Source: Candidatus Harrisonbacteria bacterium
Lineage (GTDB): Bacteria; Patescibacteriota; Minisyncoccia; UBA6257; UBA11618
NCBI GenBank assembly: GCA_016867415.1
Contig: VGJO01000002.1
Location: forward strand, 118,472-182,471
Length of the DNA: 64,000 nucleotides
Reading direction: 5' to 3'
Shown here: positions 4,068 through 23,297 of the stretch, piece after piece
How positions within the stretch are numbered: position 1 is the first letter of the stretch
How the letters are laid out: every line of letters begins with the position of its first letter
Notes under the pieces: generated by a model
The model's database searches: none
Seen by the model: only the letters and a program-made list of their open reading frames with translations
What the model was told of the DNA's origin: nothing
Translations under genes and position numbers: made by a program

Positions 4068-6143
4068 TTATAATTTCATCGACACCACGCGACTATAGCC
4101 TTCCGGAGTCATTGATACGCCATAAATCGCATCCGCCGCCTCCATCACCGCCCGATTATGGGTAATTAATATAAACTGCATCTCTTTTTTCATCTCAGAA
4201 AGAAGCTCTGCAAATCGCCGACAATTCCGCTCATCAAGTGGTGCATCCACCTCATCAAAAAGTAAGAATGGTGGCGCTGATACCGAAGCCAGAGCAAAAA
4301 GCGCCGCTATTCCCAAAAGACTCCGCTCTCCGCCAGAAAATGAAAGCACGCTCTTCGCTCCTTTGTGACCAAGCTCCGCTTGCATCTCCACTCCTTCCTC
4401 TGGAGTAAGAAAAAGTTCTACTTTTCCATCCTTAAACATCCGCAAAAAATTATCCGACAGCCGCTCTTTCACTAAAGAAAACTTCAGAGAAAACTCCTTC
4501 CGAACCAAGTCCTTCAGCTCGCCAATAATCTTTATAAGATTCTCCCGGCTTATTCGTATATCCGCAAGCTCCTTAATAAGGAGAGCATTCCGCTCCTCCG
4601 CCACTCTTGCCTCAAGAAGAACATTTTCATCGATAAGACCTACCCTATTAAGCTCATCCATCGTCCGCTTTCGCTTCCTAGTCACCTCTTCCAAAAGCGG
4701 GGCGGAGCCTTCTCCTATTTCATCAAAAGAAAAATCATCTTCACTCATCCCCACCTCTCTTAGCTCATATTGATACAATTCATTTTCTTTCTGCCACTCC
4801 TCTTCTTGCCGATTGAGCTCCCGGAGCCCATACTCTGTTTCGCGTAATTCATCTTTTTCCTTCTCTATCTCTCTTTCTTTCTCTCTAAACTGCAATCGCA
4901 TTTTCTCTTTTTCCTCCTCAATCTTCTGGAGTTCTTTCTGAAGTTTTTCCCGCACCTGCCTTGCATTTGCTATCTGCTCTTTTTCTTTAGTAAAATCCAA
5001 TTCCTTCTGCGATTCTTGTTTCATTACAAGCTCTTGAGGCTCTTCCTCTCCTAAATATTCTTTCCCCATTTTCCGAATATCTTTGAGCCCCCTCCCCATT
5101 GCCGTCACTCCTCCTTTCTCAATTGCCCGTTCCGCCGTCATAACTATAGAAAAAACTAATTCATTCTCCTGTTTTTTTTGAAGAGATTTTGTAACCGGTA
5201 GAGTCTTGCTAGCCACCACTTCAATGCGCTGCTCCATAAGAGAAACAAAAGAAAAAATCTCCTGCTCTTTCTCCTCCATCTGTCTCTTTATCAACGAAAT
5301 TTTCTTTTCGATAGTTATGAAATCTGGTTGCTCAATAAGCGACATCAAAGTCACCTCTGAAATTCTTTTTAAAAAAGACTCTTTCTGGAGAATAAGTTGC
5401 TCTTTCCGCTCTTTTATTGCAAAAAAATCACGACGCAATAATCCTTTTATTAAAGAAAAATATTGAAGATGAAGCTCAGTGAGTTTCTTTTCGAGATCTT
5501 CCTGTTTCTTTTTCCTCTCTGCTTCACGCCGGAGGATGGTAAGCCGTGGTAAAAGACCTTCAAGTTCTATCTCTGCTCGAGCAATATTTTCCTCAGTGAG
5601 CGTTAGTTTTCGCTCTGCCTCCTCTCCTTTCATTCGGTACCCCTTAAGACCAAAAATTTCCTCGAGAAGGGCTCGTCGCTGAAGAGGCTTTGAAAGTACA
5701 AAAGCATCAGCCTCTCCCTGATTCACAATCATCATTCCCCGCGCCCCGATCCGTGAGTGGGCAAAAAGCTCCACCGCATCCTTGAGCCGCATAGCACTGT
5801 TATTAATAAGACATTCCGAATCCCCATTCTTATATACTCGTCTTGTAATAAGAAGTTCGGGAAAATCGCTAGCCAACTTTCCCTCATGATTCAAAAGCGT
5901 GAGACTTGCATACCCAGCACTCATCCCCTGCTTCTTCTTACTCCCAGAAAATATCAGTCCCGAAAGATCTTCACTCCGAATATTCTTCGCTTCTCGCTCT
6001 CCCAAAACAAACCGAAACGCTTCGACAATATTTGATTTCCCCGAACCATTCGGGCCAACGATCGTGGTCACCCCCGCCGGAAACTCAATCTCCGTCTTCT
6101 CCGCAAATGACTTAAACCCAGAAAGCTCGAGACTCTTTAGCAT
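4068..6143 (-). CDS. smc: Chromosome segregation protein SMC, shortened form (691 aa)
   Basis: N-terminal Walker A FKSF...GPNGSGKSNIVEAFRFVLGE; long coiled-coil; C-terminal LSGGERSLLGIAALFAL...LLFDEVDAPLD signature/Walker B/D-loop. Confidence 0.85.
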   Translation of the reverse strand: MLKSLELSGFKSFAEKTEIEFPAGVTTIVGPNGSGKSNIVEAFRFVLGEREAKNIRSEDLSGLIFSGSKKKQGMSAGYASLTLLNHEGKLASDFPELLITRRVYKNGDSECLINNSAMRLKDAVELFAHSRIGARGMMIVNQGEADAFVLSKPLQRRALLEEIFGLKGYRMKGEEAERKLTLTEENIARAEIELEGLLPRLTILRREAERKKKQEDLEKKLTELHLQYFSLIKGLLRRDFFAIKERKEQLILQKESFLKRISEVTLMSLIEQPDFITIEKKISLIKRQMEEKEQEIFSFVSLMEQRIEVVASKTLPVTKSLQKKQENELVFSIVMTAERAIEKGGVTAMGRGLKDIRKMGKEYLGEEEPQELVMKQESQKELDFTKEKEQIANARQVREKLQKELQKIEEEKEKMRLQFREKEREIEKEKDELRETEYGLRELNRQEEEWQKENELYQYELREVGMSEDDFSFDEIGEGSAPLLEEVTRKRKRTMDELNRVGLIDENVLLEARVAEERNALLIKELADIRISRENLIKIIGELKDLVRKEFSLKFSLVKERLSDNFLRMFKDGKVELFLTPEEGVEMQAELGHKGAKSVLSFSGGERSLLGIAALFALASVSAPPFLLFDEVDAPLDERNCRRFAELLSEMKKEMQFILITHNRAVMEAADAIYGVSMTPEGYSRVVSMKL

Positions 6144-6297
6144 AAAAAAATAAACAGTACCTCTAGTATATCAAAAAAGATTTTTAAAGATAAAAAAAGC
6201 AGTCATCTAGTAACCGATCTTCCTAGTCAAGTTCATAAAAAAAGAAAATTATTTTCCTTGCCTTTTTTCCTCTCAATCAAATGGTTTTGCAATATCA

Positions 6298-6552
6298 TCA
6301 AAATTCATATGAGAAAGATAAGAAAAAAGATTTCTCATAAATTTTAGCTAAAAGTACTTCCCTATCACGATTGATTGTAATCACTTTTCTGAATCTGAGA
6401 AGAGCTTCCCCTCTATAATTTGGCAAAAAATTTGAAATTTTATTAAGAGATGGATGAGGGGGTGTCTCTTCATAATCTAAAAAATATTCCTCTGTTTCAG
6501 GAATATCAATATTTTTTTCCGACGCATATCCGTGCAATTTGTATAGATCCAT
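6298..6552 (-). CDS. hypothetical small protein (weak)
   Basis: 84-aa ORF only; no recognisable motif; overlaps another predicted ORF. Confidence 0.2.
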   Translation of the reverse strand: MDLYKLHGYASEKNIDIPETEEYFLDYEETPPHPSLNKISNFLPNYRGEALLRFRKVITINRDREVLLAKIYEKSFFLSFSYEF

Positions 6553-6611
6553 AAAATAATCCCGAACATCAAGAAAATCTCCACACCACTAAAAAAGCTC
6601 TCTTCCCTATC

Positions 6612-6742
6612 GTGACTATTCTGAAGAAAAGATCTTAATTTTTTATGGTATTTTTTATCTCCTTTTTCCCCAAAAAAATCCTTTTCAAGGACAGAAGAAT
6701 CCATTCTCAGGATTGGATTCTGAGTCACAGAAAGAGAGAAGA
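6612..6742 (+). repeat. Family B repeat fragment (B5)
   Basis: cgtgactattctgaagaaaag...tttttatggtatttttt...ttttcaaggacagaagaa...gagtcacagaaag matches family B 3' module. Confidence 0.55.
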
Positions 6743-6775
6743 AATTTTTTAAAAATAACAGTACAAATCCGTGCT

Positions 6776-7456
6776 TTATTTCTCCAAAGCCTTCTTCGCC
6801 GCCTCCGCCTCTGCCTCCTGCTTTGAAAAGCCTTTTCCCTTCGCTAGCAATACTCCATCCACATACACTCCCACTTCAAAAGTCTTTTCGTGTTCCGGTC
6901 CCTCCTCATGAGTTACCCGGTACTCTGGAGTAATTTTCTTCTCTTTCTGAATCTCTTCCTGAAGGAGGCTCTTAGGATCACGATAATTTCCACTCTTTAA
7001 GACCTCGTGCAAATACTTCATCAAAAATCGATCAAGATACCCCTTCACCGCGCCGTAGCCCCCATCCAGATATATCGCCCCAATCAAAGCCTCCGCCGCA
7101 TTCGCAAGGATCACTTCCATCGCCCGCTTTGTGTCCCGCGCCTCTCCTCGCGATACGAGCATCTTCTTCTCAAGACCACTTTCCTTCGCTACCTCCGCCA
7201 TCATTAAGTAATTGACAAGTGATGCTCGGAGCGGCGTAAGCGCCCCCTCACTTTTCTCTGGAAACCGATGATAAAGCTCCTCAGTCACAATAAGCTCGAG
7301 CACTGCATCTCCTAAAAATTCCAGTCGCTCATTATGAGGAAATGGCCATCTCGGATTTTCATTCAAATATGAGCGATGGGTAATCGCCTCCTTTAAATAC
7401 TCTGGCTTAGAAAATCGATATCCTATAGTTCTCTCTATTTCTCCAATATCCACCAT
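6776..7456 (-). CDS. rnc: Ribonuclease III
   Basis: 226 aa; RNase III signature ERLEFLGDAVLELIVTEELY; C-terminal dsRBD with GxGxSKxxAxxxAA-like KGKGFSKQEAEAEAAKKALE. Confidence 0.9.
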   Translation of the reverse strand: MVDIGEIERTIGYRFSKPEYLKEAITHRSYLNENPRWPFPHNERLEFLGDAVLELIVTEELYHRFPEKSEGALTPLRASLVNYLMMAEVAKESGLEKKMLVSRGEARDTKRAMEVILANAAEALIGAIYLDGGYGAVKGYLDRFLMKYLHEVLKSGNYRDPKSLLQEEIQKEKKITPEYRVTHEEGPEHEKTFEVGVYVDGVLLAKGKGFSKQEAEAEAAKKALEK

Positions 7457-7458
7457 AC

Positions 7459-7965
7459 CTATTCTTTATCCTGAGCTTGTCGAAGGACTTTAACCTCTTC
7501 CTTTTCTTTTTCCTCAGGTTTTTGAGACACTACTTCTTTTGGCAAAGTCGCCTCAATTTCCTTATACACCGTTCCTAAAACACCGTTAATAAATTTACCC
7601 GAATTCGGCCCCCCGTAATTTTTGGCAATCTCAATTGCTTCATTAATCGCCACTTTCGGCGGCACTTCATCCTTATTCGCATGCAAGAGCTCAAAAAGAC
7701 CTATCCGCAAGGCATTTCGATCAATGACCGCCACCTGCGGCAATGGCCACTCCGGCGCCGCCTTCTCAATAATGGCGTCGAGCTCATTAATGTGTTCAAT
7801 CACTCCCGAGACGAGTTTGAAAACAAATTCTGGCTCGTCAAAACCTGGAGCAAACTCATTAATATTGCGCTCCACTATCTTTGCTAAATCTTCCTTCTTA
7901 TCAAGAAAGTCCCATTCATAGAGGGACTGCAGGGCTATTGACCGCCCAAGCTGTCTAGTCGCCAT
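7459..7965 (-). CDS. nusB: Transcription antitermination factor NusB
   Basis: 168 aa; NusB-like helical protein with conserved [15 protein letters not shown]... region. Confidence 0.75.
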
Positions 7966-8010
7966 AATATAAAGTTAATTCTACCACACCACATAAGAAA
8001 GAAGAGTGAA

Positions 8011-8313
8011 TTACTCACTCTTCTTTTCCTCTTCCTTAGATTCGGCTACGACCTCTCCTTCCTCTTTCACTTCTTCTTGCTTTGCCTCTAGAACCACTTC
8101 TTCTTTTTTCTTTCTCGTAGTTTTCTTAGGCTTTATCTCCGCCGTTTTTGCTTCAAGCGGTCCATAATTACCACACTGCAAACATGCTCGATGAGGCAAG
8201 ACCGGACCGCCACACTTCACGCAGACTGCAAGCTTTATTTTCTTCAAAGCATGATGTGACCGTCTTCGGCCCACCTTGCCTTTACTGTGATGTTTAACTG
8301 GTACACCTCCCAT
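8011..8313 (-). CDS. rpmF: 50S ribosomal protein L32 (with Lys/Glu-rich C-terminal extension)
   Basis: N-terminus GGVPVKHHSKGKVGRRRSHHALK and Cys4 cluster CVKCG...CLQCG typical of L32. Confidence 0.75.
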   Translation of the reverse strand: MGGVPVKHHSKGKVGRRRSHHALKKIKLAVCVKCGGPVLPHRACLQCGNYGPLEAKTAEIKPKKTTRKKKEEVVLEAKQEEVKEEGEVVAESKEEEKKSE

Positions 8314-8345
8314 AGTCCGCTAATGATAACAAATAATAGAGAAAA

Positions 8346-8387
8346 GTCAATAAAATCAATTTTAGCTAAAAATTAGATTTTATTGAC
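8346..8387 (-). terminator. 12-bp perfect inverted repeat between rnhB and rpmF (terminator/regulatory hairpin)
   Basis: gtcaataaaatc ... gattttattgac separated by 18 nt. Confidence 0.3.
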
Positions 8388-8439
8388 CCCCGTGAAAGTA
8401 CTCCTCTTTACAGAGTAAACTATATAAATATCTTAAGTA

Positions 8440-9000
8440 TTAATGCAAAAAGCTCTTCCTATGCCACTCAGTCACTCCTAGTTTTTGTATCGCCTCCCTA
8501 TGCTCCCTCGTCCCATACCCTGCATTTCTTTCCCACCCATATCCTTGATATTTTTCCGCAAGCCCTGCCATCACTCTATCTCGCATTACTTTCGCGTATA
8601 CAGCCGCGAGCATCACTGCCGACACTTTCTGATCCGCTTTTATCATTGTCTCTTGATCAACATTTTTATCCACCAAAAAAAGCCCGCCATCAAGAACCAC
8701 TCTATCCCCTTTCTCTCTTACCGCCATATACGCAAAATTCGCACCAAGTCGCGCCGCCTGCAAAATATTTATCTTCTCAATTATTGCAACCGACAGACTC
8801 ACCGCTTCCGCCCTCAAAATTCCCGCCTGCTTCTGCTCCTCAATCCACTCCCACCACCACTCCCGTTCCGGCCTCGGCATCAGCTTCGAATCCCGTATTT
8901 CCTTGGGCAAACAAAGGGACACTGGCACCCGTACCGCCCCTACAGTCACCGGCCCCGCGAGGCACCCCCGCCCCACCTCATCTATTCCAATAAGATGCAT
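8440..9000 (-). CDS. rnhB: Ribonuclease HII
   Basis: 186 aa; N-terminal IGIDEVGRGCLAGPVTVGAV matches RNase HII catalytic motif (DEVGRG). Confidence 0.88.
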   Translation of the reverse strand: MHLIGIDEVGRGCLAGPVTVGAVRVPVSLCLPKEIRDSKLMPRPEREWWWEWIEEQKQAGILRAEAVSLSVAIIEKINILQAARLGANFAYMAVREKGDRVVLDGGLFLVDKNVDQETMIKADQKVSAVMLAAVYAKVMRDRVMAGLAEKYQGYGWERNAGYGTREHREAIQKLGVTEWHRKSFLH

Positions 9001-9010
9001 CTATAGAAAA

Positions 9011-10171
9011 CTATTCAACTTCAGATAAATAATCCTTGCAAGCCACTTTAATATTATCAGGTAGCTTCTGGCTAATATTTTTATATAAAATCACAAAATT
9101 CTTACATTCTTCTCGACTAAAAGTAGTAACCAATTGATTTTTTTTATCTTTACTCTTAATCCTTTGAGCAAAAACCTTACAGGCTTGTTTCGGATCTTTA
9201 CCCAAGCTATTAAGATAAGAAAAAAAATCATTCCTCATCGCAACATCATAATTAAAGTTAGCCTTTCCAGTCGGATTAAGAACTTCTTTAATTTCAGGAA
9301 TTTTATCAATAATGCCGGTTTGTAAAGTTTTACCCCGAATCACAAGAGAAATAAATTTATAGTAAATATCATATCCATATTTATCAATAAAATAACCGGC
9401 TATTAAGGCTCCAGAGTTATAAAGGTCATAAACTTCCTGTTTATCTTGAGAATAAGCCTCTATTTTAAAAAAGGAATCAAAAGAACGACATAACCCGGTA
9501 GGACCAAAAATAATCTTCTTCCTTTCAAAAAACTGCAGGCAAGTTCGATTAACAAAAGACTCGCTCTCTTCTAAAGTACAAGTACCTTCATCAAAGCATC
9601 GAGGAAGAGGGGTTTGGAACATTCGACCCAAAAGTACATGAGATATTTCATGAGGAGCAATATTATCAAGTACATATTGAAAATCATTAGCAATAAAAAA
9701 CATGGTGAAAGTATTGTTTAAGAAAGAAGTTTTACCCTTTCCGAAAAAAGTTAAAAATGTATTTCCACTACCAGCCGGCTCAGAAAGATTAGGGAAAAAA
9801 ATGGAATTAAGTTTAATCTTCACATTTATATAAATATCATCTCCTCGAAGACTACAATTTTGCCTATCACAAAAATTTTTATATTGATCCGCCATTGCAT
9901 CCGCTATTTTTTCAAAATCAACAGCTCGTAAAACAATATCAGAAGAGATAGGAGCTAATTGATCACTTTTTTCAAGATCAGCAATAGGCTGATCTCCAGG
10001 CGTTTGAGAAAAAGTAAAATGAATGACAATTTTAGTTCCATCTTTGTCGGCTATTACCGTCCTTACTATTTCTTCAGTTGCAAGAGAAAGAGCATAAGAA
10101 AAGTAAAAAAATAAGAATAAGAATAAAAAAGTATTTTTAAAATAAAAAAGGAAACCCTTAAAGTTAATCAT
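9011..10171 (-). CDS. Secreted hypothetical protein with HExxH zinc-metallopeptidase-like motif
   Basis: 386 aa; hydrophobic N-terminal signal/anchor (FLFLFLFFYFSYALSLA); HEISHVLLG motif; A/T-rich codon usage. Confidence 0.55.
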   Translation of the reverse strand: MINFKGFLFYFKNTFLFLFLFFYFSYALSLATEEIVRTVIADKDGTKIVIHFTFSQTPGDQPIADLEKSDQLAPISSDIVLRAVDFEKIADAMADQYKNFCDRQNCSLRGDDIYINVKIKLNSIFFPNLSEPAGSGNTFLTFFGKGKTSFLNNTFTMFFIANDFQYVLDNIAPHEISHVLLGRMFQTPLPRCFDEGTCTLEESESFVNRTCLQFFERKKIIFGPTGLCRSFDSFFKIEAYSQDKQEVYDLYNSGALIAGYFIDKYGYDIYYKFISLVIRGKTLQTGIIDKIPEIKEVLNPTGKANFNYDVAMRNDFFSYLNSLGKDPKQACKVFAQRIKSKDKKNQLVTTFSREECKNFVILYKNISQKLPDNIKVACKDYLSEVE

Positions 10172-10980
10172 CTTTTTGGAGCATGCATTTCAATACTTTT
10201 AGCTAGATCTTCAATATTTTTCTTATACCAGTCTTCCCCAAAATTATCTAATAAGACTTTCCTTAAAACAGGATCATTTTTCATATCTGTTATCAATCTT
10301 CTGGTAACTCTTGCCGTAGGCACTATTCCGACTTGATAAATGTTTTCTGTATTAGGAAAATAACCATCATTAATGAGAGTGAACACATCTTTAATATAAG
10401 CAGAATTCTTTTCTAAAAAATCCTTAACCAAAGACCTATAGATTGGTAGAGTAGGATCATTGGGATAATTATCTTGAAGATGACGCAATATAGAGATTCC
10501 AAAGATCATAAAAGCCGCATTCCCCTCTGATAAATTACCCAAATCAGTTGTATTAGGATCAGAAGTTTTGATATTTCTATTACTTCTCACCATTTGTAAT
10601 CTCCATACATTACCAAAATAATAAGCGTCCATCTCATCAAAAAGATAAGACAATTGGGTCCAATAATTATTAGAAAAATAGGTTCCTGACTTTCTGCAAT
10701 ATTTAGCCATATCTTTAGGAATATAAGGTCGTTGGGTATAAGCTTGCAAAGTACTCTGAGATTGAGGGATTACATAAAAGCAAACTCTTTTTGGAGCATT
10801 TCCAGAAAATTGAATATCTTTTACTAGACAAGCAAAAGTATTAGGCTTCTTCCCAGCATTTTTAATGCATCCTACAAGCTTCGTTATAGCCATGAATTTT
10901 TTCGTGAACATTATTATCAGAAAAATTTTTAGAAAGAGCTTCTCTGCAAAGAGCATTATCGCCGCAAGAAGCAAGGTCAT
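10168..10980 (-). CDS. hypothetical protein (start uncertain; ATGA overlap with downstream gene)
   Basis: 270-aa ORF; hydrophobic N-terminus; 5' end overlaps the neighbouring ORF in another frame, so an internal Met start is possible. Confidence 0.45.
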   Translation of the reverse strand: MTLLLAAIMLFAEKLFLKIFLIIMFTKKFMAITKLVGCIKNAGKKPNTFACLVKDIQFSGNAPKRVCFYVIPQSQSTLQAYTQRPYIPKDMAKYCRKSGTYFSNNYWTQLSYLFDEMDAYYFGNVWRLQMVRSNRNIKTSDPNTTDLGNLSEGNAAFMIFGISILRHLQDNYPNDPTLPIYRSLVKDFLEKNSAYIKDVFTLINDGYFPNTENIYQVGIVPTARVTRRLITDMKNDPVLRKVLLDNFGEDWYKKNIEDLAKSIEMHAPKR

Positions 10981-11311
10981 TTACATCATTAATACAAAAA
11001 AAATTAATATCAGATAGATCATTATTATGATTAGTAGGCCCCCGACTATTTAAAACATCGAGTTTACTCTGAAACTCATTTACATCTTTGGCTTTTATTA
11101 TATGAATAATCCTTTTACCATCTTTAAATTCAAAAATACAATTCGAACCCAAAAATCCATCATCGCGAAAAGAGATTATTTTTTTTGTTAAATTTTCTCG
11201 CACAAGAGAATTAATAGAAGAATCATCACAGGCTATTAAAGAATATCGAAGATCCTGAGCAAAAGAAAAAAAAGGAGCAAAAAACAATAGAAGAAGAAAG
11301 AAAAATCTCAT
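10862..11311 (-). CDS. Secreted hypothetical protein
   Basis: ORF 10862..11404; internal Met gives signal peptide MRFFFLLLLFFAPFFSFAQD and removes overlap with upstream gene. Confidence 0.45.
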   Translation of the reverse strand: MRFFFLLLLFFAPFFSFAQDLRYSLIACDDSSINSLVRENLTKKIISFRDDGFLGSNCIFEFKDGKRIIHIIKAKDVNEFQSKLDVLNSRGPTNHNNDLSDINFFCINDVNDLASCGDNALCREALSKNFSDNNVHEKIHGYNEACRMH

Positions 11312-11315
11312 GAAG

Positions 11316-12380
11316 TTAGAAGACACTCCCCACCAAATCAGAAGAATTAGATAATGACCTTTTACATTCTTGAACAGCTTGATCAATCTTATTATTAAAA
11401 TCATTTTTAGCAGTAGCTAAAGCAGCTAGTAAATTCTGATTATTTCTTTGGCTAACAAGATCGGACAGATCTTTAAGAGCCTCATAAGCTAATTGAAAAT
11501 TTTCATTTTTCTTAATTAATGCATCTCGGGTACACTGACCAGGAATAGTATTAGACGAAAGCGAATTATTACCTTCCGGCATAATCACCTGCGGCGGCAA
11601 CTGCATCCGAGCTAAACAATCTTTATAATCTTTATACGCTGCCTGTATTGCCGCAATCTTTTTCTCTGATTCATCTGCGTTGATAGCACAATTAAACGAA
11701 GTCAAAGTTTTTAATAACTTCTGAATCTCGGGAATAGTATTCGATACAAAGTTATCTATATTCAGATCTTTTCCATTTACATAATCCTTAACCGAATCGA
11801 CAAAGTCCACCACATCTTTCTTTTCTTTTGGAGATAAACGACAATACTTGTTTTGAGCTAAATTGACATACCGATCATAAGGCAACCCTCGAATAAGAGT
11901 AATAAGATCACTTTTTTTCTTATCTAGTTCCGCCTTATCCGGTATCGCTGGCTCCAAAAGTCCAGAATTTTTTCTCGCTTCAGTCACAAGACCGCTCACA
12001 TACGCCTCCTTATTCTCTCGCTTGGCATACGCTTCCGGGTCCCCAATCCGTCCCATCACATAGGAAGCAATGCTATTTGCATTTCCTTCGTTAATTCCAT
12101 TAAGCTTCGCCGCATCATTCGGATCAAGCGGGGTATCAAAAAGATACTTCGGTGAGGTGACATTAAAAGTAATCGTATGCGGCCCCAGTTTTCTCACGCA
12201 GGTATAGGTCGTGTGATAAACAGCGTCATCTCCCGGCTTGCACTCCGCCGCCTGCACCTCCTCCGCTAACGGAAAAATAGTTTTTTGTTTAGCAACAACA
12301 AGCAAAAGTAAACTTACAAAAATAAGAGAAAGAATCAAATATTTTTTTCTGTTATTTCCAGTATTTTTTTTCTTTTTCAT
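11316..12380 (-). CDS. Secreted hypothetical protein
   Basis: 354 aa; N-terminal KKKK + hydrophobic signal (YLILSLIFVSLLLLVVA); several Cys; no known motif. Confidence 0.55.
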   Translation of the reverse strand: MKKKKNTGNNRKKYLILSLIFVSLLLLVVAKQKTIFPLAEEVQAAECKPGDDAVYHTTYTCVRKLGPHTITFNVTSPKYLFDTPLDPNDAAKLNGINEGNANSIASYVMGRIGDPEAYAKRENKEAYVSGLVTEARKNSGLLEPAIPDKAELDKKKSDLITLIRGLPYDRYVNLAQNKYCRLSPKEKKDVVDFVDSVKDYVNGKDLNIDNFVSNTIPEIQKLLKTLTSFNCAINADESEKKIAAIQAAYKDYKDCLARMQLPPQVIMPEGNNSLSSNTIPGQCTRDALIKKNENFQLAYEALKDLSDLVSQRNNQNLLAALATAKNDFNNKIDQAVQECKRSLSNSSDLVGSVF

Positions 12381-12383
12381 GAA

Positions 12384-13832
12384 TTAATTAAAATTTCTAA
12401 ATTCTGAAACACGCCACGGTTGAAGTTCAGGATGAGGATATTTATCTACATCGTAGTAAAAGACAGGAATAACACTACCGTCTTTCTGAAACTTGCTATA
12501 ATTTTTATAAGAATGAGGCTTAGCTTCCTGACATGGTACGCACCACGAAGTAGACAGTTGGAGTCGAAATGGTTTGCCGCTCGCCTTTAGTTCCTCAAAC
12601 TGATTATTATCTATTTCAAATGACATCCCTTTTCGAGGATCATCAGGCTTTAGAAGATTATTATTCGGCTGCGTCGCCGGCTTCAAACACGCTACTAGTT
12701 TAATCGGACCAGGCAATTTCACCGCCACCGTCACCTTTGATCCGCATTTTTTATCATTTTCCTCTTTAAGCCGCATAAGCTCATATTCAATCTTCGCTTT
12801 TTTGTCCGACACACTGCACGCCGCCGCTTTCCCCTCTAGTTCATTTTTCTGTTTTTCATAGGTATCGCAAAAAAACTGATCATTTTCCTTAAACGGGGTA
12901 AATGAACAATCATCCTTTTGCTTCTTCAAGCACGCCTGCACCGATTTCAAAAGATCCCCTATATTAAATTTACCTGGATCAGGATATAGATATTTCTCTC
13001 CATCTTTCTCCACGTCCGCTGTTAAGATTTTTAACTCCCACACAAGCGAATAATACGACAACAGCGGTCTTTGAGGAGGTTCAGGTAATGCATTTATTTT
13101 ATTAATGAGCTCAAAAACCACATCTCGATTCTTATTAATATCTTGGAATTTTTTATTTACTTCCACAATATTTGAACCATTCTTTGCAATGGCTGGAATT
13201 TGAAAAATTCCTTTTACATAATTTTTTCCGTTATACTTATCTGCATTATATTTTGCAATCGCCTCATTCGCCGCCTTAATCGCCTTATCGCAATCCGGAG
13301 AAACAATACACGGTTTTTCTTTTATTATTTTATAAGGACCAAAAACCTTCCCATTCTTAGCATTAGTAATAGTAATATATGACTCTCCTTTCTCTTCTTT
13401 TATTGTAACTTCATCACCAGGATAAATTAGTATACAACTAGTCTCTTCTCCATTCTCATCAACTGTACATACTTGTTCCACATTCTTATTCTTATCTTTT
13501 TCCTCCTTCTCATTCTTATATTTAACCTTACATCCTCCCTTACATAAATCAGCTAAAGAAGTATCTGAAGGAACAATATCCACTCCCGAATCATCCATCT
13601 TCCCCGAAAGACAAACTTTCAATTTCTGAGTCAGGGTTTGTACTTCTTTTTTTAGATCTTCAAGCTTAAAAAAATCATCATTATTTATGGCCTCTCGCAG
13701 TAATTCTCTCGCCTTCCTAAGTTCTTCAGAGATAGCCCCGCAATCCGGCCGGGCTTCTTGAGCAAAAGCAAATTGAAAAGAAAAAATACTCAAGAAAAAC
13801 CCCATTAAGAAAAACCAAGCGCTATATTTCAT
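12384..13832 (-). CDS. Cys-rich secreted hypothetical protein with C-terminal thioredoxin-like WCxPC motif
   Basis: ORF 12384..13886; signal peptide from internal Met (MKYSAWFFLMGFFLSIFSFQFAFAQE); about 24 Cys; C-terminal FRLQLSTSWCVPCQ resembles the Trx active-site context (F.AEWCGPCK). Confidence 0.55.
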   Translation of the reverse strand: MKYSAWFFLMGFFLSIFSFQFAFAQEARPDCGAISEELRKARELLREAINNDDFFKLEDLKKEVQTLTQKLKVCLSGKMDDSGVDIVPSDTSLADLCKGGCKVKYKNEKEEKDKNKNVEQVCTVDENGEETSCILIYPGDEVTIKEEKGESYITITNAKNGKVFGPYKIIKEKPCIVSPDCDKAIKAANEAIAKYNADKYNGKNYVKGIFQIPAIAKNGSNIVEVNKKFQDINKNRDVVFELINKINALPEPPQRPLLSYYSLVWELKILTADVEKDGEKYLYPDPGKFNIGDLLKSVQACLKKQKDDCSFTPFKENDQFFCDTYEKQKNELEGKAAACSVSDKKAKIEYELMRLKEENDKKCGSKVTVAVKLPGPIKLVACLKPATQPNNNLLKPDDPRKGMSFEIDNNQFEELKASGKPFRLQLSTSWCVPCQEAKPHSYKNYSKFQKDGSVIPVFYYDVDKYPHPELQPWRVSEFRNFN

Positions 13833-13882
13833 AAACTCTTTCTTGAAGAATATCATAATAAAAAAAGAATGTTTTCCCCAGA

Positions 13883-15604
13883 TCACGGCATCTGCACAAC
13901 CGGCATCGTGATTCCGCCTCGACTTCGCTTATACTGCTTCGGCGGAGTATTAGAGACCTCGTTCACCGCCTCCTGTATCTTCGCCCGCTTAAGCGCCTCC
14001 TCAGCTTCTTTTAAAAGCTCCTCCGCCTCTTCTTTTAATTCCTTCTGAAGCTTCGCCCGCTTAAGCGCCTCCTCAGCTTCTTTTAAAAGCTCCTCCGCCT
14101 CTTCTTTTAATTCCTTCTGAAGCTTCGCCCGCTCAAGCGCCTCCTCAGCTTCTTTTAAAAGCTCCTCCGCCTCTTCTTTTAATCTCTTTTCTTTCATTAG
14201 TCCATTCCCCTTCATACAGTAAGATGGTAAAAGCTTTTGCACCTCCACATCACTAATTGCAAGAACTCTCAGATCGAAATCAGAAAGCTTTTTGGCATTA
14301 TCAATAAAATCACAGATATCATTCACCTTATTATCATCAATATCTTTGATATCTTTTATTTTTTGTTCAATTTCTTTCTTCATCTCACGAAGAGTGGCAA
14401 GATTTGCGTTGATTTTATTCCTATTCTTTTCTGTATTAACAACTGCTACATCCACCCATCCTAAACCTTTTCCTTCACTTAGATTTTTAAACAATTCCTC
14501 AAGCCTATTCACTCGCCCCCAAATCACCTGCAACACTGATTGTAGATTATTCTTCATCAAAACTACCTGCCCTCTATCACAAATCGCTTCTCCCTTCGAA
14601 ATCGTCAGAAAGTCGTTAATAAGTTCAGAAAGTCGTAAAAGATCCTTTTCTTCTCCGCTTCGTTTTTTACCTAGAATTAATGGATCTACTATAGTCACCG
14701 ACCCCCCAATAACCGCCACATGATTATTAGCGTTTTCCATTTGCACCAATTCATTCGCAATAGTAATAAGATACCAATTAATATTTCCTAAAAATGAAAT
14801 ATTAGAAAGCACCTCTTGCACACCTTCTAAGATCTGCTTCTTGGCACTACTTACAATAGCAAGAGAGTCTGCTAAAAATACATTTTCAATATTAGTCTTC
14901 ACTTCATTAAGTACCAGACCCTTTATAAGCTCCTCCGCCGCTCCATACTTCTCCGCAAAAAGATCTGCTAACCGCTCGATCAAATTATCGGGTGATTCCG
15001 TATTCCCTTCTACAAACTTCGTCACGTCTGTAAGAAATTCGAAGACCTCGCTTGGGAAAAGTTTGTTATCTTTTGATTTTGCGCACATAAGCGCCACTCG
15101 ACCCTTCACGCATGCTTTATACTCAGAAGACACTCGGCGAAAAAGCGACACCGCCAAATCCGTTACTACTTTCTTAAGATTTTCCAGTTTATCCTCATTA
15201 TTCTTAAAAAACTTTTGAAGCACCGTATCTACTCGAGTTCGCTGATCATTTGAAAGCCGGCTATATGACGAACTAAAAAATCCTTGGGACACCTCTTCCA
15301 TGATCTTCTGTTCAATATTGATAAAAAATTCATCCCCGCCTAACTTCTCCTCCACCGCTTCCCGAATCGCTTTCTCCGCCTCATCAGCCAAAGCCGGACT
15401 GTTTAGCATCTCATCTACAAGTGTTTTCACTTTAACACAACCCACCCTACACCTTTGTTTGATAAGATCAGCAAGAGTAGTAGGCATCTCTTGAGTCTCG
15501 GGTGATGGTTTTTTAGATACTTCTTGAGCCAAGCTAAAATAAGGAAAAGAGAAACAAACCGTACTCACTACCAAAAGAAAAATCATACCCGTTCTCGAAA
15601 ACAT
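13883..15604 (-). CDS. Secreted coiled-coil hypothetical protein with 3 tandem 24-aa repeats
   Basis: 573 aa; signal peptide MFSRTGMIFLLVVSTVCFSFPYFSLAQE; C-terminal repeats LQKELKEEAEELLKEAEEALKRAK x3; stop-start overlap ATGA with upstream gene. Confidence 0.6.
   Translation of the reverse strand: MFSRTGMIFLLVVSTVCFSFPYFSLAQEVSKKPSPETQEMPTTLADLIKQRCRVGCVKVKTLVDEMLNSPALADEAEKAIREAVEEKLGGDEFFINIEQKIMEEVSQGFFSSSYSRLSNDQRTRVDTVLQKFFKNNEDKLENLKKVVTDLAVSLFRRVSSEYKACVKGRVALMCAKSKDNKLFPSEVFEFLTDVTKFVEGNTESPDNLIERLADLFAEKYGAAEELIKGLVLNEVKTNIENVFLADSLAIVSSAKKQILEGVQEVLSNISFLGNINWYLITIANELVQMENANNHVAVIGGSVTIVDPLILGKKRSGEEKDLLRLSELINDFLTISKGEAICDRGQVVLMKNNLQSVLQVIWGRVNRLEELFKNLSEGKGLGWVDVAVVNTEKNRNKINANLATLREMKKEIEQKIKDIKDIDDNKVNDICDFIDNAKKLSDFDLRVLAISDVEVQKLLPSYCMKGNGLMKEKRLKEEAEELLKEAEEALERAKLQKELKEEAEELLKEAEEALKRAKLQKELKEEAEELLKEAEEALKRAKIQEAVNEVSNTPPKQYKRSRGGITMPVVQMP
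13975..14195. repeat. Three tandem ~72-bp repeats (coding, inside 13883..15604)
   Basis: cgcccgcttaagcgcctcctcagcttcttttaaaagctcctccgcctcttcttttaattccttctgaagctt repeated 3 times nearly perfectly. Confidence 0.9.
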
Positions 15605-15706
15605 AGATACCTTTAGTATACCGCATAGAAATAAAGAAAGAGTGTGGAATAAAAAACCCGCCCATAGTTGAGCGGGGTTTCGGAAAAAGATTTGGGTCTT
15701 CTTCCA

Positions 15707-15982
15707 TTACTTCTCGTCGCTTTCGGGAGAAGGGAGTGTCGGCTTCTCGGGCAAATTGAGTCCCGGAAAAAGCTGCAAGCCTTCGCGGCTCACTTTCCCC
15801 ATCGCCTGCATGGCTTGGAAAGCGTCGGTCACATCCGACGCTGTCTCGATCGAGGCCTCCAAGGAGGCCTCGATCGCTTGAGCACTCGCATCAAGCGCCC
15901 GCTCCACCTTCTTGCTCTCGAAATGGATGAGGAGAGATATCATCAGCACAAACGCGCTCGAAATACCAAAAAACATTTTCAT
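15707..15982 (-). CDS. Small secreted/membrane hypothetical protein
   Basis: 91 aa; N-terminal hydrophobic segment MKMFFGISSAFVLMISLLIHF. Confidence 0.35.
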   Translation of the reverse strand: MKMFFGISSAFVLMISLLIHFESKKVERALDASAQAIEASLEASIETASDVTDAFQAMQAMGKVSREGLQLFPGLNLPEKPTLPSPESDEK

Positions 15983-16079
15983 GACCAGACTCCTGAAAAA
16001 GAGATTTGAATATTTTCAAACTGCCACTATTACTCATATATTATAGCATACCAGATATACAAAAGTCAATAGTAACCCC

Positions 16080-16330
16080 GAAGTTGTCAAGTACCCTTAT
16101 AAAATAAGGGTTCTAGAGATTGTCATCCTAGACCACGATCCAGAATCCAGGGCTTGCCGTCTTTGGCGAGCCTCGCTAAAAGCGGGACCCGGAATCTCGT
16201 AGCGGAGCCCTTAGGCCACGTGGGACAGTATTCTTTCCTTTACGTGGCGAAGACCCTGGAACGGGACAAGGCTTGCCGCTTATGGCGGTATTCATAAGTA
16301 ACTAACTATTTTCTCTTAAGATGTTGTGGG
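16080..16330. ncRNA. Candidate structured non-coding region (unassigned)
   Basis: GC-enriched ORF-free stretch with several stems: gccacgt...acgtggc (7 bp), gggcttgccg/ggcgagcc, ccgc-ttatg-gcgg; ggcttgccg occurs twice. Confidence 0.2.
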
Positions 16331-16387
16331 CTTAACGCAGAGTAGTTTTGTACGAATTTTGCAATTTCTTTGCTCGAAATTATTAAA

Positions 16388-16528
16388 ACGTTACACGTCG
16401 TCAAGCGCAGGATTTTTGGATGGAGTTTGCGATTTCTTTCCGAGGAGCCGCCGCAGCGTACTAAGAGCTAGGTACGTGAGGAGGCACCGCAGGAAAAAAT
16501 CGCAAAATCCGCCAAAAAGACCAGCTCG
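16388..16528 (+). repeat. Family A intergenic repeat, copy R3 (abuts dnaE stop codon)
   Basis: gcgcaggatttttggatggagtttgcgatttctttccgag...cagcgtactaagagctaggtacgtgagg...gaaaaaatcgcaaaatccgccaaaaag; last base 16528, dnaE stop 16529-16531. Confidence 0.75.
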
Positions 16529-19500
16529 TTAAATAGATTTTATCTTCTCGAGTATAAATTTTGGTTCTCCGTTCCTATGACTCATTCGGCCTGAGGCGAG
16601 AATGATTCTCCCCTCCGCCCATTCAAAATTCTTATACTCCTCCACCGTCCGAGGAAATACAATCATCTCGAGTGAATCCCGCGCATCATTCAAGTTTACA
16701 AACATCATCGACTGATTATTCTTGGTAAGAATCTTTTTCACACTTGTCATGAGCCCCGCCACCGCAAAACTCGCCTTCTCATTTGTGACTCCCATCGCGT
16801 CCCTGAGTGTCCGCGCCGTAAGTTTCCCCCGATACGGATTAAACGGATGATCCGAGATATAAAGGCCGAGAAGCTCCTTCTCCCACTCGAGCTTCTGCTT
16901 CACACTCGCGGGTGCTACCTCCTTGAGCTTCAACTGCCCCTTAAACTCATCCTTCATTCCAAAAAGTGATCCCGCCGCCTTCTTCTTATACTCCCTGAGT
17001 AGCTGGCTATACCGCAAAATCTCATCCAAATTTTCATTCGCCATATTCCGCTCGACGCCGAGAGAATCAAAAACTCCGCACTTCACGAGCGCCTCAAGCG
17101 ACTTTTTATTAAGATCCCGATGCTCAATCCGGTTCAAAATATCCCGCATTGTCTTATATGCTCCCCCTCGTCCCCGCTCCTCAATCAAAAGCTTTACGAT
17201 ATTTTCCCCCACATTTTTAATCGCGAGGAGTCCAAATCGAATCTCCAGCTTCTCAGGATACGGTGCAAACTCCACCTCGCTCTCATTGATATCCGGCGGC
17301 AACACTTTGATCCGCATCTTCCGACATTCCTCCACAAGAAACGCCACCCGCTCAATATCCCCCGCATCGTTATTTAAGAGTGCCGTCATAAATTCCACGG
17401 GATAATGCGCCCGCAAATATGCTGTCTGATAGCCAATAAAGGCATAGCAGACCGCGTGCGATTTATTAAATCCATATCGCGCAAACGGTGGAAAGAGCTC
17501 CCAGATCTGGACCGCAATATGATCCGGAATTCCGTTTTCAATCATTCCTTTTGTGAGCTTCTCCCGCTGTTCTTCCAAAAGTGCCTTAATCTTTTTCCCG
17601 ATTGCCTTGCGAAGCGTATCCGCCTCAGCGAGCGTATAGCCGGCGAGATCCCGCGCGATTCGCATCATCTGCTCCTGATAGAGACCGATCCCATACGTGT
17701 CCCGCATGATTGGCTCGAGTCCCGGATGCAAATAGGTCGTCTCCTCTCGCCCATGCTTTCTCGCGATAAACGATGGGATAAGATCCATCGGCCCCGGCCG
17801 ATACGCGGCGACCAATGCCACCAGGTCATCGAGCCGTGTGGGTTGGAGCTCCTTCATATACCGCCGCATACCCGACGATTCAAATTGAAAGACTCCCGTC
17901 GTCTCCCCCCGCTGGAGCATCTCATATGTCTCTGGGTCATCAAGCGGCAAAGTATTAATGTCCACATGCCCCTTTCCGTTTTCTTTAATCAGTCGCACTG
18001 TCTCCTCCATGATCGATAAATTTTTCAGTCCTAAGATATCCATCTTAAGAAGTCCTAGAGACTCAATCGCATGCATTTCAAATTGAGTGATAATCGCCGA
18101 TTCATCCTGTGGCGCATACTGAAGCGGTACATAGTGTGAAAGCGGCTTATCCCCGATCACGATGCCGCAGGCATGCACAGACGCGTGCCGCGTGAGTCCC
18201 TCGAGCTTCCGGGACGCATCGATGATCTGCTTTGCGTCCGCCTCTTTTTCATAGAGCTCTTTGAGCTCTGGCACCGTATCCATCGCCGTCTCCAAGTCCT
18301 CATTAAATGGGATTAGTTTTGCCACCCGATCGCAAAAGCCATAGCTCACTCCAAGCGCTCGCCCCGCATCCCGCACCGCCGCCCGCGCTGCCATCGTCCC
18401 AAAAGTGATAATATTAGCCACTTGATCCTTCCCATATTTATCCCGCAGATATTGCACCACTCGATCCCGCCCCTTATCCGCGATATCGGTATCGATATCC
18501 GGCATTTGAATACGATCGGGGTTTAAAAACCGTTCAAAAAGCAAATCATATTTCAATGGATCCACGTTCGTGATCCCAGTGATATACGCCACGATCGATC
18601 CGGCCGCCGAGCCTCTCCCTGGTCCCACGATGATCCCTTGGCTCCGCGCCCAAGCTATAAAATCCTGCACGATAAGAAAATATGCCGGATACCCCATCCG
18701 CTCGATGACCGAGAGCTCATACTCCACCCGATCTAGCACTATTTTATTTGGCTCCGCCCCATACCGTGTTGGCAGTCGCCCTTCTACAATTTTTCTCAAG
18801 TATGTCGCCGCTGTCTCATCTTCAGGCAAGGGAAATTTGGGCAAAATGGTTTTCCCCAGTTCCAACGTTACCTTGCATCGCTCCGCGATTTTTCCCGTGT
18901 TCTCAATCGCCTCCGGCAAATCGACAAAACATTCCCGCATCATGGCCTCACTCCTCATGGAGAAATCATCCATCCGCATGCCGCCTGCCTTCCCTGCAAT
19001 CTTTCTTGGCCCCTGAGCCTCTCCCTCCACATTACCGCTATGCAGCTTATTGCTCATCTGCACCGCGAGCAGTATCTCATGATATGGCGCATCCTCCTTC
19101 TTCTTATAGTGCACGTCCTGTGTGGCAACCAGTGGCGCCCCGATCTCCTTGCTTATCCAAAGCAACCCCGCCCGCACTCGCTCATGATCTTCTGGAAAAC
19201 ATTTCGGGTGATGCGACACTTCAATAAAATAATTATCTTTGCCAAAAATATTCTGATGGCGCTTCGCCGCCTCCAATGCCTCCTCCCGCTTCCCCAATAG
19301 CAAGTTGCGAATCACCTCGCCCGAATAGCATCCCGAGAGCGCAATCAGCCCCTCGTGATACTCTGAAAGGAGCTCCATATCCATCCGCGGCTTATAATAA
19401 AAACCCTCAAGATTCGCCCGAGTAGTCAGCTGAATCAAATTTTTCCACCCTGTCTCGTTTTCGCAAAGAAGCGTGAGGTGATAGTACTTATTATCCACTC

Positions 19501-19780
19501 CATGCACCTTCTCGTGCCGACTCCTTGGCGCCACATAGGCCTCCACTCCCAAGATCGGCTGAATCCCCACCTTTTTGGTCTTCTCATAAAATTCGATAAG
19601 CCCATACATATTCCCGTGGTCCGTAAGCGCCACCGCTCCCATCCTCATCTCCTTTGCCCCAGCAATGATGTCCTCGATCTTCATCAGTCCATCCAAAAGC
19701 GAAAAATGCGAGTGTAGATGCAGATGGACAAAACCCCTCTTCTCCCCTTCCATATGCCTCCATTCTAATACCTCCTTCAA
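16529..19780 (-). CDS. dnaE: DNA polymerase III alpha subunit
   Basis: 1083 aa; N-terminal PHP domain FVHLHLHSHFSLLDG; polymerase core; C-terminal OB region; true start may be an internal Met about 9 codons in. Confidence 0.92.
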   Translation of the reverse strand: MKEVLEWRHMEGEKRGFVHLHLHSHFSLLDGLMKIEDIIAGAKEMRMGAVALTDHGNMYGLIEFYEKTKKVGIQPILGVEAYVAPRSRHEKVHGVDNKYYHLTLLCENETGWKNLIQLTTRANLEGFYYKPRMDMELLSEYHEGLIALSGCYSGEVIRNLLLGKREEALEAAKRHQNIFGKDNYFIEVSHHPKCFPEDHERVRAGLLWISKEIGAPLVATQDVHYKKKEDAPYHEILLAVQMSNKLHSGNVEGEAQGPRKIAGKAGGMRMDDFSMRSEAMMRECFVDLPEAIENTGKIAERCKVTLELGKTILPKFPLPEDETAATYLRKIVEGRLPTRYGAEPNKIVLDRVEYELSVIERMGYPAYFLIVQDFIAWARSQGIIVGPGRGSAAGSIVAYITGITNVDPLKYDLLFERFLNPDRIQMPDIDTDIADKGRDRVVQYLRDKYGKDQVANIITFGTMAARAAVRDAGRALGVSYGFCDRVAKLIPFNEDLETAMDTVPELKELYEKEADAKQIIDASRKLEGLTRHASVHACGIVIGDKPLSHYVPLQYAPQDESAIITQFEMHAIESLGLLKMDILGLKNLSIMEETVRLIKENGKGHVDINTLPLDDPETYEMLQRGETTGVFQFESSGMRRYMKELQPTRLDDLVALVAAYRPGPMDLIPSFIARKHGREETTYLHPGLEPIMRDTYGIGLYQEQMMRIARDLAGYTLAEADTLRKAIGKKIKALLEEQREKLTKGMIENGIPDHIAVQIWELFPPFARYGFNKSHAVCYAFIGYQTAYLRAHYPVEFMTALLNNDAGDIERVAFLVEECRKMRIKVLPPDINESEVEFAPYPEKLEIRFGLLAIKNVGENIVKLLIEERGRGGAYKTMRDILNRIEHRDLNKKSLEALVKCGVFDSLGVERNMANENLDEILRYSQLLREYKKKAAGSLFGMKDEFKGQLKLKEVAPASVKQKLEWEKELLGLYISDHPFNPYRGKLTARTLRDAMGVTNEKASFAVAGLMTSVKKILTKNNQSMMFVNLNDARDSLEMIVFPRTVEEYKNFEWAEGRIILASGRMSHRNGEPKFILEKIKSI

Positions 19781-19902
19781 ACCCCGCTTCCTCTCCTGTG
19801 TATATCTTTTTCAAAAAAACATTCCTAATTTTTTTTCAAATCCACACCTCTCATCCACCGTCAAAAAGAAAAAGAGGGCCATTTGCCCTCTCTTTAGGAA
19901 AT

Positions 19903-20595
19903 TTAGTCTCCTTTTAAATAAAATATTGGAAGAATTTCTTCTTCAAGAATTTTCTTAATTTCTCCAATTCTTTGAATTTCAACCTGAGAAATAATTCCAA
20001 ATCCTTGAAGAATTCTTTGATAACCAAGAATTGTCTTTTGAGATAAGAGGCATTTCTCAGTCTCCCTGTTCCACGCACGCCTATTCTTTTGCTCCGAAAA
20101 AAAGACTTTTATCAAATGCAAGGTAGGTGTTAGAAATAAAGATCCTTTTGCAATGATTCTCAGCCTCCCTGTTCCATCAAGCTCTGCGGCAGCAATACCT
20201 TCAATTCTATGAAAGATCTTAGGTAATGTTGGAAATAGAGATCCTTTTGCAATAATTCTTGGAAGAAAAAGAAATGTGTTAAGCATCTCAAATGCCAACA
20301 TCTCCACTTGCTCCGCTTCTAAATCACTGCATAAAGAAGATAACTTTTCGGTCTCTGTCTCAAAATCAGAAAGCAAATGGACATGAGCTTCCCATTCTAA
20401 AAAATCATCCTCTTCCATGTTTTTTTCAATATATTCCAAAAACACAAAAGAAAAATGATTTAGTTCAAAGATTGATTTATAAAACAAATATCCTGCATTT
20501 TTTCCATAAATCTGATTGGTGAGAGTAAAAAAAATTTCACTCCAAAATCCTTGAGAAACCAAAAGTAGTTCTTCTTGATTCTGAGTTAATTTCAT
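19903..20595 (-). CDS. hypothetical protein with internal ~100-bp imperfect tandem duplication
   Basis: 230 aa; duplicated peptide RIIAKGSLF.TP/LPKIF; nucleotide repeats near 20058 and 20155 share ttctcag.ctccctgttcca. Confidence 0.4.
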   Translation of the reverse strand: MKLTQNQEELLLVSQGFWSEIFFTLTNQIYGKNAGYLFYKSIFELNHFSFVFLEYIEKNMEEDDFLEWEAHVHLLSDFETETEKLSSLCSDLEAEQVEMLAFEMLNTFLFLPRIIAKGSLFPTLPKIFHRIEGIAAAELDGTGRLRIIAKGSLFLTPTLHLIKVFFSEQKNRRAWNRETEKCLLSQKTILGYQRILQGFGIISQVEIQRIGEIKKILEEEILPIFYLKGD

Positions 20596-23278: not shown

Positions 23279-23297
23279 CTTCTCCCCTCTTTCTCCC

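Follow-up and report, generated by a model that had tools for sequence, protein, structure and literature searches.

A low-GC block of six genes for predicted exported proteins, one of them a divergent gluzincin, between dnaE and rnhB in Candidatus Harrisonbacteria

The genes between rnhB and dnaE

The DNA analyzed here is a stretch of 64,000 nucleotides (the window) of contig VGJO01000002.1 from Candidatus Harrisonbacteria, a lineage of the Parcubacteria in the candidate phyla radiation (CPR) that was assembled from lake metagenomes. Between dnaE and rnhB the window holds ~7.5 kb, made up of one small gene, ORF7, and a 6.6-kb low-GC block of six tightly packed minus-strand genes, ORF6 to ORF1, at 9011-15604. 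The initial annotation had described a cluster of seven minus-strand open reading frames (ORFs). All seven are present, with lengths of 386, 270, 180, 354, 500, 573, and 91 aa, ORF3 being 149 aa when read from Met32 and ORF5 490 aa when read from its first ATG, but ORF7 lies outside the cluster, which comprises six genes. The features of the block are listed below (↓ marks a predicted cleavage site).

9011..10171, minus strand: ORF1, 386 aa, predicted signal peptide and divergent gluzincin (Peptidase_MA_2-like), 9 Cys
9587-9589, minus strand: E195 of ORF1, putative third zinc ligand
9638-9652, minus strand: HEISH, H174-E175-I-S-H178 of ORF1
10168..10980, minus strand: ORF2, 241 aa (start 10893) or 270 aa (start 10980), 4 Cys, no recognizable family
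10862..11311, minus strand: ORF3, 149 aa from Met32, predicted signal peptide MRFFFLLLLFFAPFFSFA↓QD, 6 Cys (4%), no recognizable family
11316..12380, minus strand: ORF4, 354 aa, predicted N-terminal signal peptide or anchor, 7 Cys, no recognizable family
12384..13856, minus strand: ORF5, 490 aa, predicted signal peptide, 16 Cys, C-terminal thioredoxin-like region, strain-variable
12531-12545, minus strand: WCVPC, residues 438-442 of ORF5, aligned to the thioredoxin active site
13883..15604, minus strand: ORF6, 573 aa (567 from Met7), predicted signal peptide, C-terminal coiled-coil repeats, first gene of the block, strain-variable
13969..14188, minus strand: 24-aa repeat LKEEAEELLKEAEEALKRAKLQKE, three tandem 72-nt units in ORF6 (2.8 copies, 99% identical)

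Because stops would make up ~7.6-8% of random codons in DNA this rich in A/T, frames of 149-573 codons are not expected by chance (P = 8e-6 to 3e-20 per ORF), and the frames of the block are intact in independent assemblies. Of the two ATGA stop-start overlaps reported initially, only that at the ORF2/ORF1 junction is ATGA. At the ORF6/ORF5 junction the sequence is GTGA, with the ORF5 start being placed by gene callers at an ATG 27 nt downstream. No terminator-like site was found inside ORF6-ORF1, minus-strand sites of this kind occurring only in or after ORF7, and the gap between ORF1 and rnhB has none either. ORF6-ORF1 probably form a single transcript able to read into rnhB, as judged from the sequence. 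No paralogy was found among the cluster proteins, or between them and either the remaining exported proteins of the window or the genes at the corresponding junction in relatives.

The GC content is 0.361 for the block, 0.445 for the remainder of the window, and 0.436 for the window as a whole; for the first 2.3 kb of the block it is 0.31. Positions 9001-12000 have the lowest value of all 3-kb intervals (0.323), 3.6 standard deviations below the mean (0.437, standard deviation 0.032). For ORF1 to ORF6 the GC content is 0.31, 0.33, 0.30, 0.38, 0.37, and 0.41, respectively, and the GC content at third codon positions (GC3) is 0.21-0.40. The neighboring housekeeping genes have a GC3 of 0.43-0.59, and for rnhB, nusB, rnc, and dnaE the GC content is 0.45-0.51 and the GC3 0.46-0.59. 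The A/T-rich character ascribed to the cluster is therefore a property of ORF1-ORF6 but not of ORF7, which has a native composition (GC 0.54, GC3 0.69). The features flanking the six genes are as follows.

8440..9000, minus strand: rnhB, encoding RNase HII, downstream boundary of the block, start 10 nt from the ORF1 stop
15657..15676, minus strand: intrinsic-terminator-like hairpin followed by TTTTTT, directly after ORF7, between ORF7 and ORF6
15707..15982, minus strand: ORF7, 91 aa, one N-terminal transmembrane helix, then an acidic Ala-rich tail
16040..16069, minus strand: promoter-like site TTGACT-18-TATAAT upstream of ORF7, 11 of 12 matches plus a TG extension
16529..19780, minus strand: dnaE, upstream boundary, inverted relative to the thrS-dnaE<->rnhB arrangement and on the same strand as rnhB

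The promoter-like site upstream of ORF7 is the best promoter match in the region. Because ORF7 is GC-rich and has its own putative promoter and terminator, we treat it as a separate unit and the cluster as six genes. The 546-nt spacer between dnaE and the ORF7 promoter contains a GC-rich segment of ~230 nt (16100-16330, minus strand) that folds somewhat better than shuffled sequences (z = -2.4) and has no match in Rfam; no credible RNA family emerged when 8000-23700 was searched against Rfam.

Export signals were judged by hydrophobicity and an Ala-X-Ala (AXA) heuristic over 49 genes of the window. Every ORF of the cluster has exactly one hydrophobic segment, which is N-terminal. Small-x-small (AXA-type) cleavage sites were identified in ORF1, ORF3, ORF4, ORF5, and ORF6 with Q, E, or A as the next residue, the sites seen being SFA↓QD, AFA↓QE, SLA↓QE, PLA↓EE, and ALS↓LA. 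Five or six of the products carry predicted Sec-type N-termini and so look exported, in agreement with the signal-peptide-like segments that had been noted for most of them. The cluster proteins contain 1.4-4.0% Cys (2.3% overall), whereas most other proteins of the window have ≤0.9% and its other exported or membrane proteins 0-0.5%. Such enrichment fits disulfide-stabilized extracytoplasmic proteins.

The DNA encoding the ends of three of these putative signal peptides is 68-74% similar (11253-11283 in ORF3, 13756-13786 in ORF5, and 15522-15552 in ORF6). The encoded cleavage ends are also alike (FSFA↓Q, FAFA↓Q, and FSLA↓Q, respectively), and the mature proteins are otherwise unrelated.

Start codon choice affects two of the genes. 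ORF3 most likely starts at Met32, which would give it a textbook signal peptide. The 270-aa form of ORF2 overlaps ORF3 by 119 nt and is the only form with the hydrophobic N-terminus; most gene callers use the 241-aa start, without it. Export of ORF2 is uncertain because it depends on which start codon is used. ORF2, ORF3, and ORF4 have no match in Pfam, NCBIfam, PHROGs, or PADLOC, and ORF2 and ORF4 also have none in a PDB sequence search. Each of ORF2-ORF6 falls in a 90%-identity cluster of 1-5 sequences of the same species.

ORF1, ORF5, and ORF6

ORF1 corresponds to NCBI protein FJY91_01815 and occurs without any change on 11 contigs of ENA, JGI, and Logan assemblies. A word-indexed search with ORF1 returned ORF1 alone. 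An exhaustive HMMER search of 1.84 billion representatives retrieved 255 proteins at E ≤ 1e-3, aligned to residues ~135-280, the best being P0143 (E = 6.5e-12, 33% identity); no close relative was found in this set. Nine of the 10 top homologues tested match PF13485 (Peptidase_MA_2), three of them above its 32.4-bit cut-off. In an alignment of 40 sequences the invariant columns are P173, H174, E175, H178, P190, R191, D194, E195, G196, E202, Y240, and Y251, all of which ORF1 keeps, including the HExxH motif, which the initial annotation had already picked out and which is HEISH here, the downstream Glu, and the conserved tyrosines. The invariant D194-E195-G196 lies 17 residues after H178, and E195 is the predicted third zinc ligand.

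AlphaFold modeled ORF1 with a predicted local distance difference test score (pLDDT) of 75.5 and a predicted template modeling score (pTM) of 0.67 when given the alignment, as against a pLDDT of 42.7 for the single-sequence model. The predicted structure has a thermolysin-like fold, with an N-terminal β subdomain and a helical subdomain carrying the ligands. The ORF1 profile run against PDB sequences produced a spurious match to a repeat protein and a marginal match at E = 0.35 to an entry that we take to be of the M1 family and leukotriene A4 hydrolase-like. Because the sequence of ORF1 itself misses the Pfam threshold, its assignment as a divergent gluzincin is made through transitive homology and fold. 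On this basis ORF1 is predicted to encode a secreted gluzincin protease with intact catalytic residues. The view that nothing in the cluster resembles a housekeeping family holds insofar as no Pfam or NCBIfam family is reached, but ORF1 does have recognizable relatives.

HExxH with the downstream Glu (H174, E175, H178, and E195) and the Tyr positions are common to ORF1 and 39 homologues. The gluzincins compared were the M9 collagenase peptidase domains (PDB 7wss, 4ar8, and 2y3u), the M30 enzyme lugdulysin (PDB 7bb8), M1 aminopeptidases, and M4 thermolysin. The M9 and M30 enzymes have a signal peptide, as ORF1 appears to. Nevertheless, ORF1 is only 21-33% identical to any relative, and in the PRW/CxDEG motif its Trp is replaced by Cys, a change it has in common only with P0143, which carries the same unusual variant PRCFDEG and lies on a 1.4-kb contig of 37% GC. 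ORF1 also has an extra Cys-containing helical C-terminal region (residues ~287-386) and no collagen-binding or PKD accessory domains. The sole ORF1 match with a named organism is from the Planctomycetota, and another lies in a GC-rich, Planctomycetota-like genomic context.

ORF5 bears out the earlier description of a very Cys-rich protein with a WCxPC motif, having 16 Cys residues and the sequence WCVPC. Its matches to thioredoxin families are weak: E = 0.009 and 16.5 bits to Pfam Thioredoxin (cut-off 23.5 bits), E = 0.004-0.01 and 16-17 bits to NCBIfam ResA/TlpA (cut-offs 170-230), and 4e-4 to a designed thioredoxin in the PDB. The Pfam match breaks off roughly two-thirds of the way through the fold, at about profile position 61 of 103, and the window allele extends 12 residues past the position aligned to the cis-Pro loop.

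The likeness of ORF5 to the extracytoplasmic oxidoreductases of monoderms and CPR bacteria (MdbA-like proteins and ResA, TlpA, and StoA) would lie in the CxxC motif, the thioredoxin-like segment, and the predicted export; ResA, TlpA, StoA, and DsbD-γ are all matched weakly. In addition, as with oxidoreductases of this type, its gene adjoins genes for Cys-rich, apparently secreted proteins. Those enzymes are stand-alone anchored domains, whereas the module in ORF5 is the C-terminal ~80 residues of a 490-aa Cys-rich protein that scores below the family thresholds and, in the window allele, is apparently truncated past the cis-Pro region. No VKOR or DsbB partner was seen for ORF5. CPR bacteria are reported to be rich in extracytoplasmic CxxC oxidoreductases, for which a role in the folding of secreted pilins has been proposed (bioRxiv 10.1101/335083).

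ORF6 is the protein for which a coiled coil with three 24-aa tandem repeats had been described, and the corresponding 72-nt repeat was found in its gene. M-protein-like coiled-coil surface proteins carry variable tandem repeats. ORF6 resembles them in its putative signal peptide, in its near-identical 24-aa heptad-like repeats, and in a copy number that varies by assembly. It differs from them in having no LPXTG or other recognized anchor, no sequence similarity, and only two or three repeats.

Variation among strains

Comparison with other assemblies revealed that ORF6 and ORF5, at one end of the block, make up a hypervariable cassette that can be replaced, whereas the block from the mature part of ORF4 to ORF1 is invariant. 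Contig L002 (JGI 3300020214) is 99.9% identical to the window over 3830-12278, after which all DNA similarity is lost. The breakpoint, at ~12278, falls within the part of ORF4 encoding the signal peptide. Upstream of it, L002 encodes a 324-aa protein with the architecture of ORF5, both alleles having a signal peptide, a DCxA(L/I)S helix, and a Cys-rich middle. They share an island, VAVKLPGP..L.ACLKPATQP, that is 75% identical over 28 aa, and elsewhere are ~22% identical. The L002 allele has a more complete thioredoxin domain, with a CSPC motif, that scores 22.7 bits against Pfam and aligns through thioredoxin residue 100. The C terminus of the ORF6-like protein of L002 is 25% identical to ORF6.

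Finer variation was observed at the same end of the block. The 72-nt repeat of ORF6 has two copies instead of three in one assembly. A 73-kb JGI contig (L041) differs from the window by five single-nucleotide polymorphisms (SNPs) in 17.5 kb, all within 38 nt (12407-12444) at the 3' end of ORF5 and all nonsynonymous (D471E, H475Y, Q479R, W481S, and S484P). This cluster of SNPs could have arisen by gene conversion of a short tract, with an unseen third allele as the donor. A diversity-generating retroelement was also considered as its source and rejected, there being no copy of a template repeat within the 64-kb window and no reverse transcriptase seen there. In many assemblies the contig stops within ORF6 or ORF5 or immediately ahead of ORF6. 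The contig of a more distant population, which stops 47 nt short of ORF6, is 98.9% identical over gatB-dnaE and 93.6% over ORF7. In strain L036 the spacer beside dnaE (16169-16529) is unalignable, and from 16168 towards ORF7 the sequence is 93.6% identical.

Replacement of surface-protein alleles between co-existing strains, in so-called metagenomic islands, has been described in marine and hypersaline microbes. The locus resembles such flexible surface-protein islands in its 99.9% identical flanks, its sharp breakpoint, its divergent but architecturally equivalent alleles of predicted exported proteins, and the fragmentation of assemblies at the site. It differs from them in being in a CPR genome with only two haplotypes documented, in having no glycosyltransferase or O-antigen-type content, and in that the variable part amounts to two genes, ORF1-ORF4 being invariant.

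Origin and possible role of the block

The source lineage is remote from other sequenced bacteria. Among 5.8 billion proteins, no other exceeds 46% identity to the RNase HII of the window, and a search of the contigs of representative genomes with this enzyme found only relatives of ≤46% identity, from other phyla. Synteny was compared in six distant Parcubacteria (Colwellbacteria, Yonathbacteria, and others) with RNase HII proteins 43-46% identical to that of the window. The order thrS(-), dnaE(-), rnhB(+) is found in all six, and in four of them the divergent dnaE and rnhB are 92-186 nt apart. The remaining two have small genes in the gap: two PF07963 (N_methyl) pilin-like genes in L035 (8949-10008) and one CYTH-domain gene in L042 (7376-7951). 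Both nusB and rnc lie within 2 kb after rnhB in five of the six; in L043 prfB follows rnhB, and nusB is elsewhere on the contig. Because dnaE and rnhB neighbor each other in all six relatives, adjacent or with at most two small genes between them, the block is best described as an insertion relative to the ancestral arrangement, and the synteny comparison upholds the earlier designation of the block as accessory. The small accessory genes in L035 and L042 suggest that the dnaE/rnhB junction may be a recurrent insertion site in Parcubacteria. No flanking inverted repeats that would explain the inversion of dnaE were found.

Other sequences were observed around this neighborhood. Between dnaE and thrS lies a 230-aa ORF (19903-20595) that is as A/T-rich as the block (GC 0.33) and has no family match. 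In L034 (579-2189) a 536-aa protein with RVT_1 and trypsin-like domains is encoded between gatB and miaA, in the same syntenic neighborhood. A family of ~130-nt elements occurs at 611-740, 16402-16532, 26421-26552, and 56656-56776 (minus-strand sense, 75% mean identity). Of the four copies, three begin at a stop codon or shortly past it (those of rplL, dnaE, and nusG), and the fourth is near a tRNA-Pro gene. The four copies fold as one long imperfect hairpin of 38 consensus pairs, 12 of them with compensatory double changes. Their core motif has three occurrences as against zero in 100 shuffles, and they have no Rfam match. They look like a repetitive extragenic palindrome, a miniature inverted-repeat transposable element-like palindrome, or a 3' terminator or stabilizer. 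The copy after dnaE is a different variant in a related strain.

On balance, and with confidence only somewhat above even, we interpret the block as a lineage-specific six-gene accessory operon of exported proteins at the otherwise conserved dnaE/rnhB junction of Candidatus Harrisonbacteria. Several points weigh against this interpretation. ORF1 itself has no match to PF13485 even at E ≤ 1 and lies below the Pfam gathering threshold. The signal peptides are predictions of the hydrophobicity/AXA heuristic. The thioredoxin-like region of ORF5 may be inactive because it is below the Pfam cut-off and the last third of the fold, at the C terminus, seems to be missing. No function is assigned to ORF2-ORF6. 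Finally, the alternative haplotype is known from a single 10-kb contig.

The initial annotation proposed that the block was horizontally acquired, and in its fuller form this explanation is of a recently acquired A/T-rich effector island, a host- or prey-interaction system inserted between dnaE and rnhB. The low GC and GC3, the lack of the block at the homologous junction of the six relatives, the inversion of the adjoining dnaE, and the mostly Planctomycetota-type proteins among the more distant relatives of ORF1 are all consistent with it. However, the dinucleotide signature of the block is ordinary (δ* of 34-82, inside the range of 13-110 for the window), and the GC content climbs gradually from ORF1 to ORF6 with no step. 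Other lineage-specific genes are equally A/T-rich, such as that at 19903-20595, and the best relative of ORF1 is only 31-33% identical and on a low-GC contig. The hallmarks of mobility are missing as well: no integrase or transposase was matched in the block by Pfam, PHROGs, or NCBIfam, no flanking direct or inverted repeats of the block were found, and there is no flanking tRNA gene, the nearest being at 448 and 34464. Searches for phage and plasmid DNA, PADLOC defense systems, and four IMG/VR scans gave no similarity, and PHROGs yielded nothing below E = 0.002 and no coherent matches. Given these observations, and with no donor identified, we consider recent acquisition of such an island unlikely. 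An insertion could also be ancient, since the relatives compared are so distant. The absence of homologues, put forward as a sign of foreign origin, says little in either direction because RNase HII itself is ≤46% identical to anything and no close relative has been sequenced.

We regard as similarly doubtful the explanation that these are ordinary native envelope or exoproteome genes that have drifted to A/T-richness under mutational bias, their variation between strains being the usual turnover of a flexible genome. The native-like dinucleotide signature, the A/T-richness of other poorly conserved genes, the small variable genes at the same junction in L035 (pilin-like) and L042 (CYTH), and the lack of a close relative for comparison all speak for it. 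The Cys enrichment is specific to the block, however, other exported proteins of the window having 0.3-0.5% Cys, and alleles of 22-25% identity in a 99.9% identical background point away from neutral drift and to strong diversifying or frequency-dependent selection. That the block is a decaying, non-functional remnant of a prophage, a mobile element, or pseudogenized DNA is highly improbable: the seemingly truncated thioredoxin-like domain of ORF5, the awkward ORF2/ORF3 overlap, and the lack of family matches for most ORFs could be read this way, but the six frames are long and intact, independent assemblies of several samples give the same or nearly the same sequence, the catalytic residues of ORF1 are intact, and there is no PHROG, PADLOC, phage, or plasmid signal.

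If the block is an accessory operon of exported proteins, as we favor, Sec would carry its products to the surface of a cell that has no outer membrane, and disulfides would stabilize them. The CxxC module of ORF5 might catalyze or edit those disulfides. ORF6 would be an elongated coiled-coil surface protein of variable repeat number, and ORF1 could cleave extracellular or partner-cell proteins for attachment, remodeling, or peptide supply. Exposure to a host or to phage might drive replacement of the cassette by homologous recombination in its conserved flanks, and the surface exposure of the products would explain this replacement. The most likely functions, to judge from the sequences, are a zinc endopeptidase or aminopeptidase-like enzyme for ORF1 and a possible in-cis disulfide catalyst for ORF5.

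A life attached to other cells is commonly ascribed to CPR bacteria. A role of the block in interaction with a host or prey is plausible given the predicted exported products and the strain variability, but peptide scavenging or envelope remodeling fits equally well. More speculatively, an episymbiotic CPR bacterium could carry the block as a self-contained cassette for interaction, combining a coiled-coil adhesin-like fiber, small Cys-rich secreted proteins, a zinc protease of the collagenase-like type, and a Cys-rich protein equipped with a disulfide-forming module. The ORF6/ORF5 end would face the partner and be swapped as whole alleles between co-existing strains under host- or phage-driven frequency-dependent selection; we hold this scenario to be improbable.

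What has been identified is a newly recognized divergent gluzincin within a flexible surface-protein island, a kind of locus that is already known. The locus offers a putative secreted gluzincin, a possible dedicated oxidative-folding module, and a pair of genes in which strains of a single lake, identical in other respects, are radically different. It also illustrates that an absence of homologues and a low GC content are weak grounds for horizontal transfer where a lineage has no sequenced close relative. To our knowledge, few candidate genes for interaction are known in CPR bacteria besides those for pili. If the ORF6/ORF5 end is not partner-facing, the block would be one more flexible surface-protein island of the type common in free-living microbes. 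If that end does face a partner, it would be a marker of host specificity, and if the block is indeed an interaction cassette, it would provide a tractable host-range locus in Parcubacteria.

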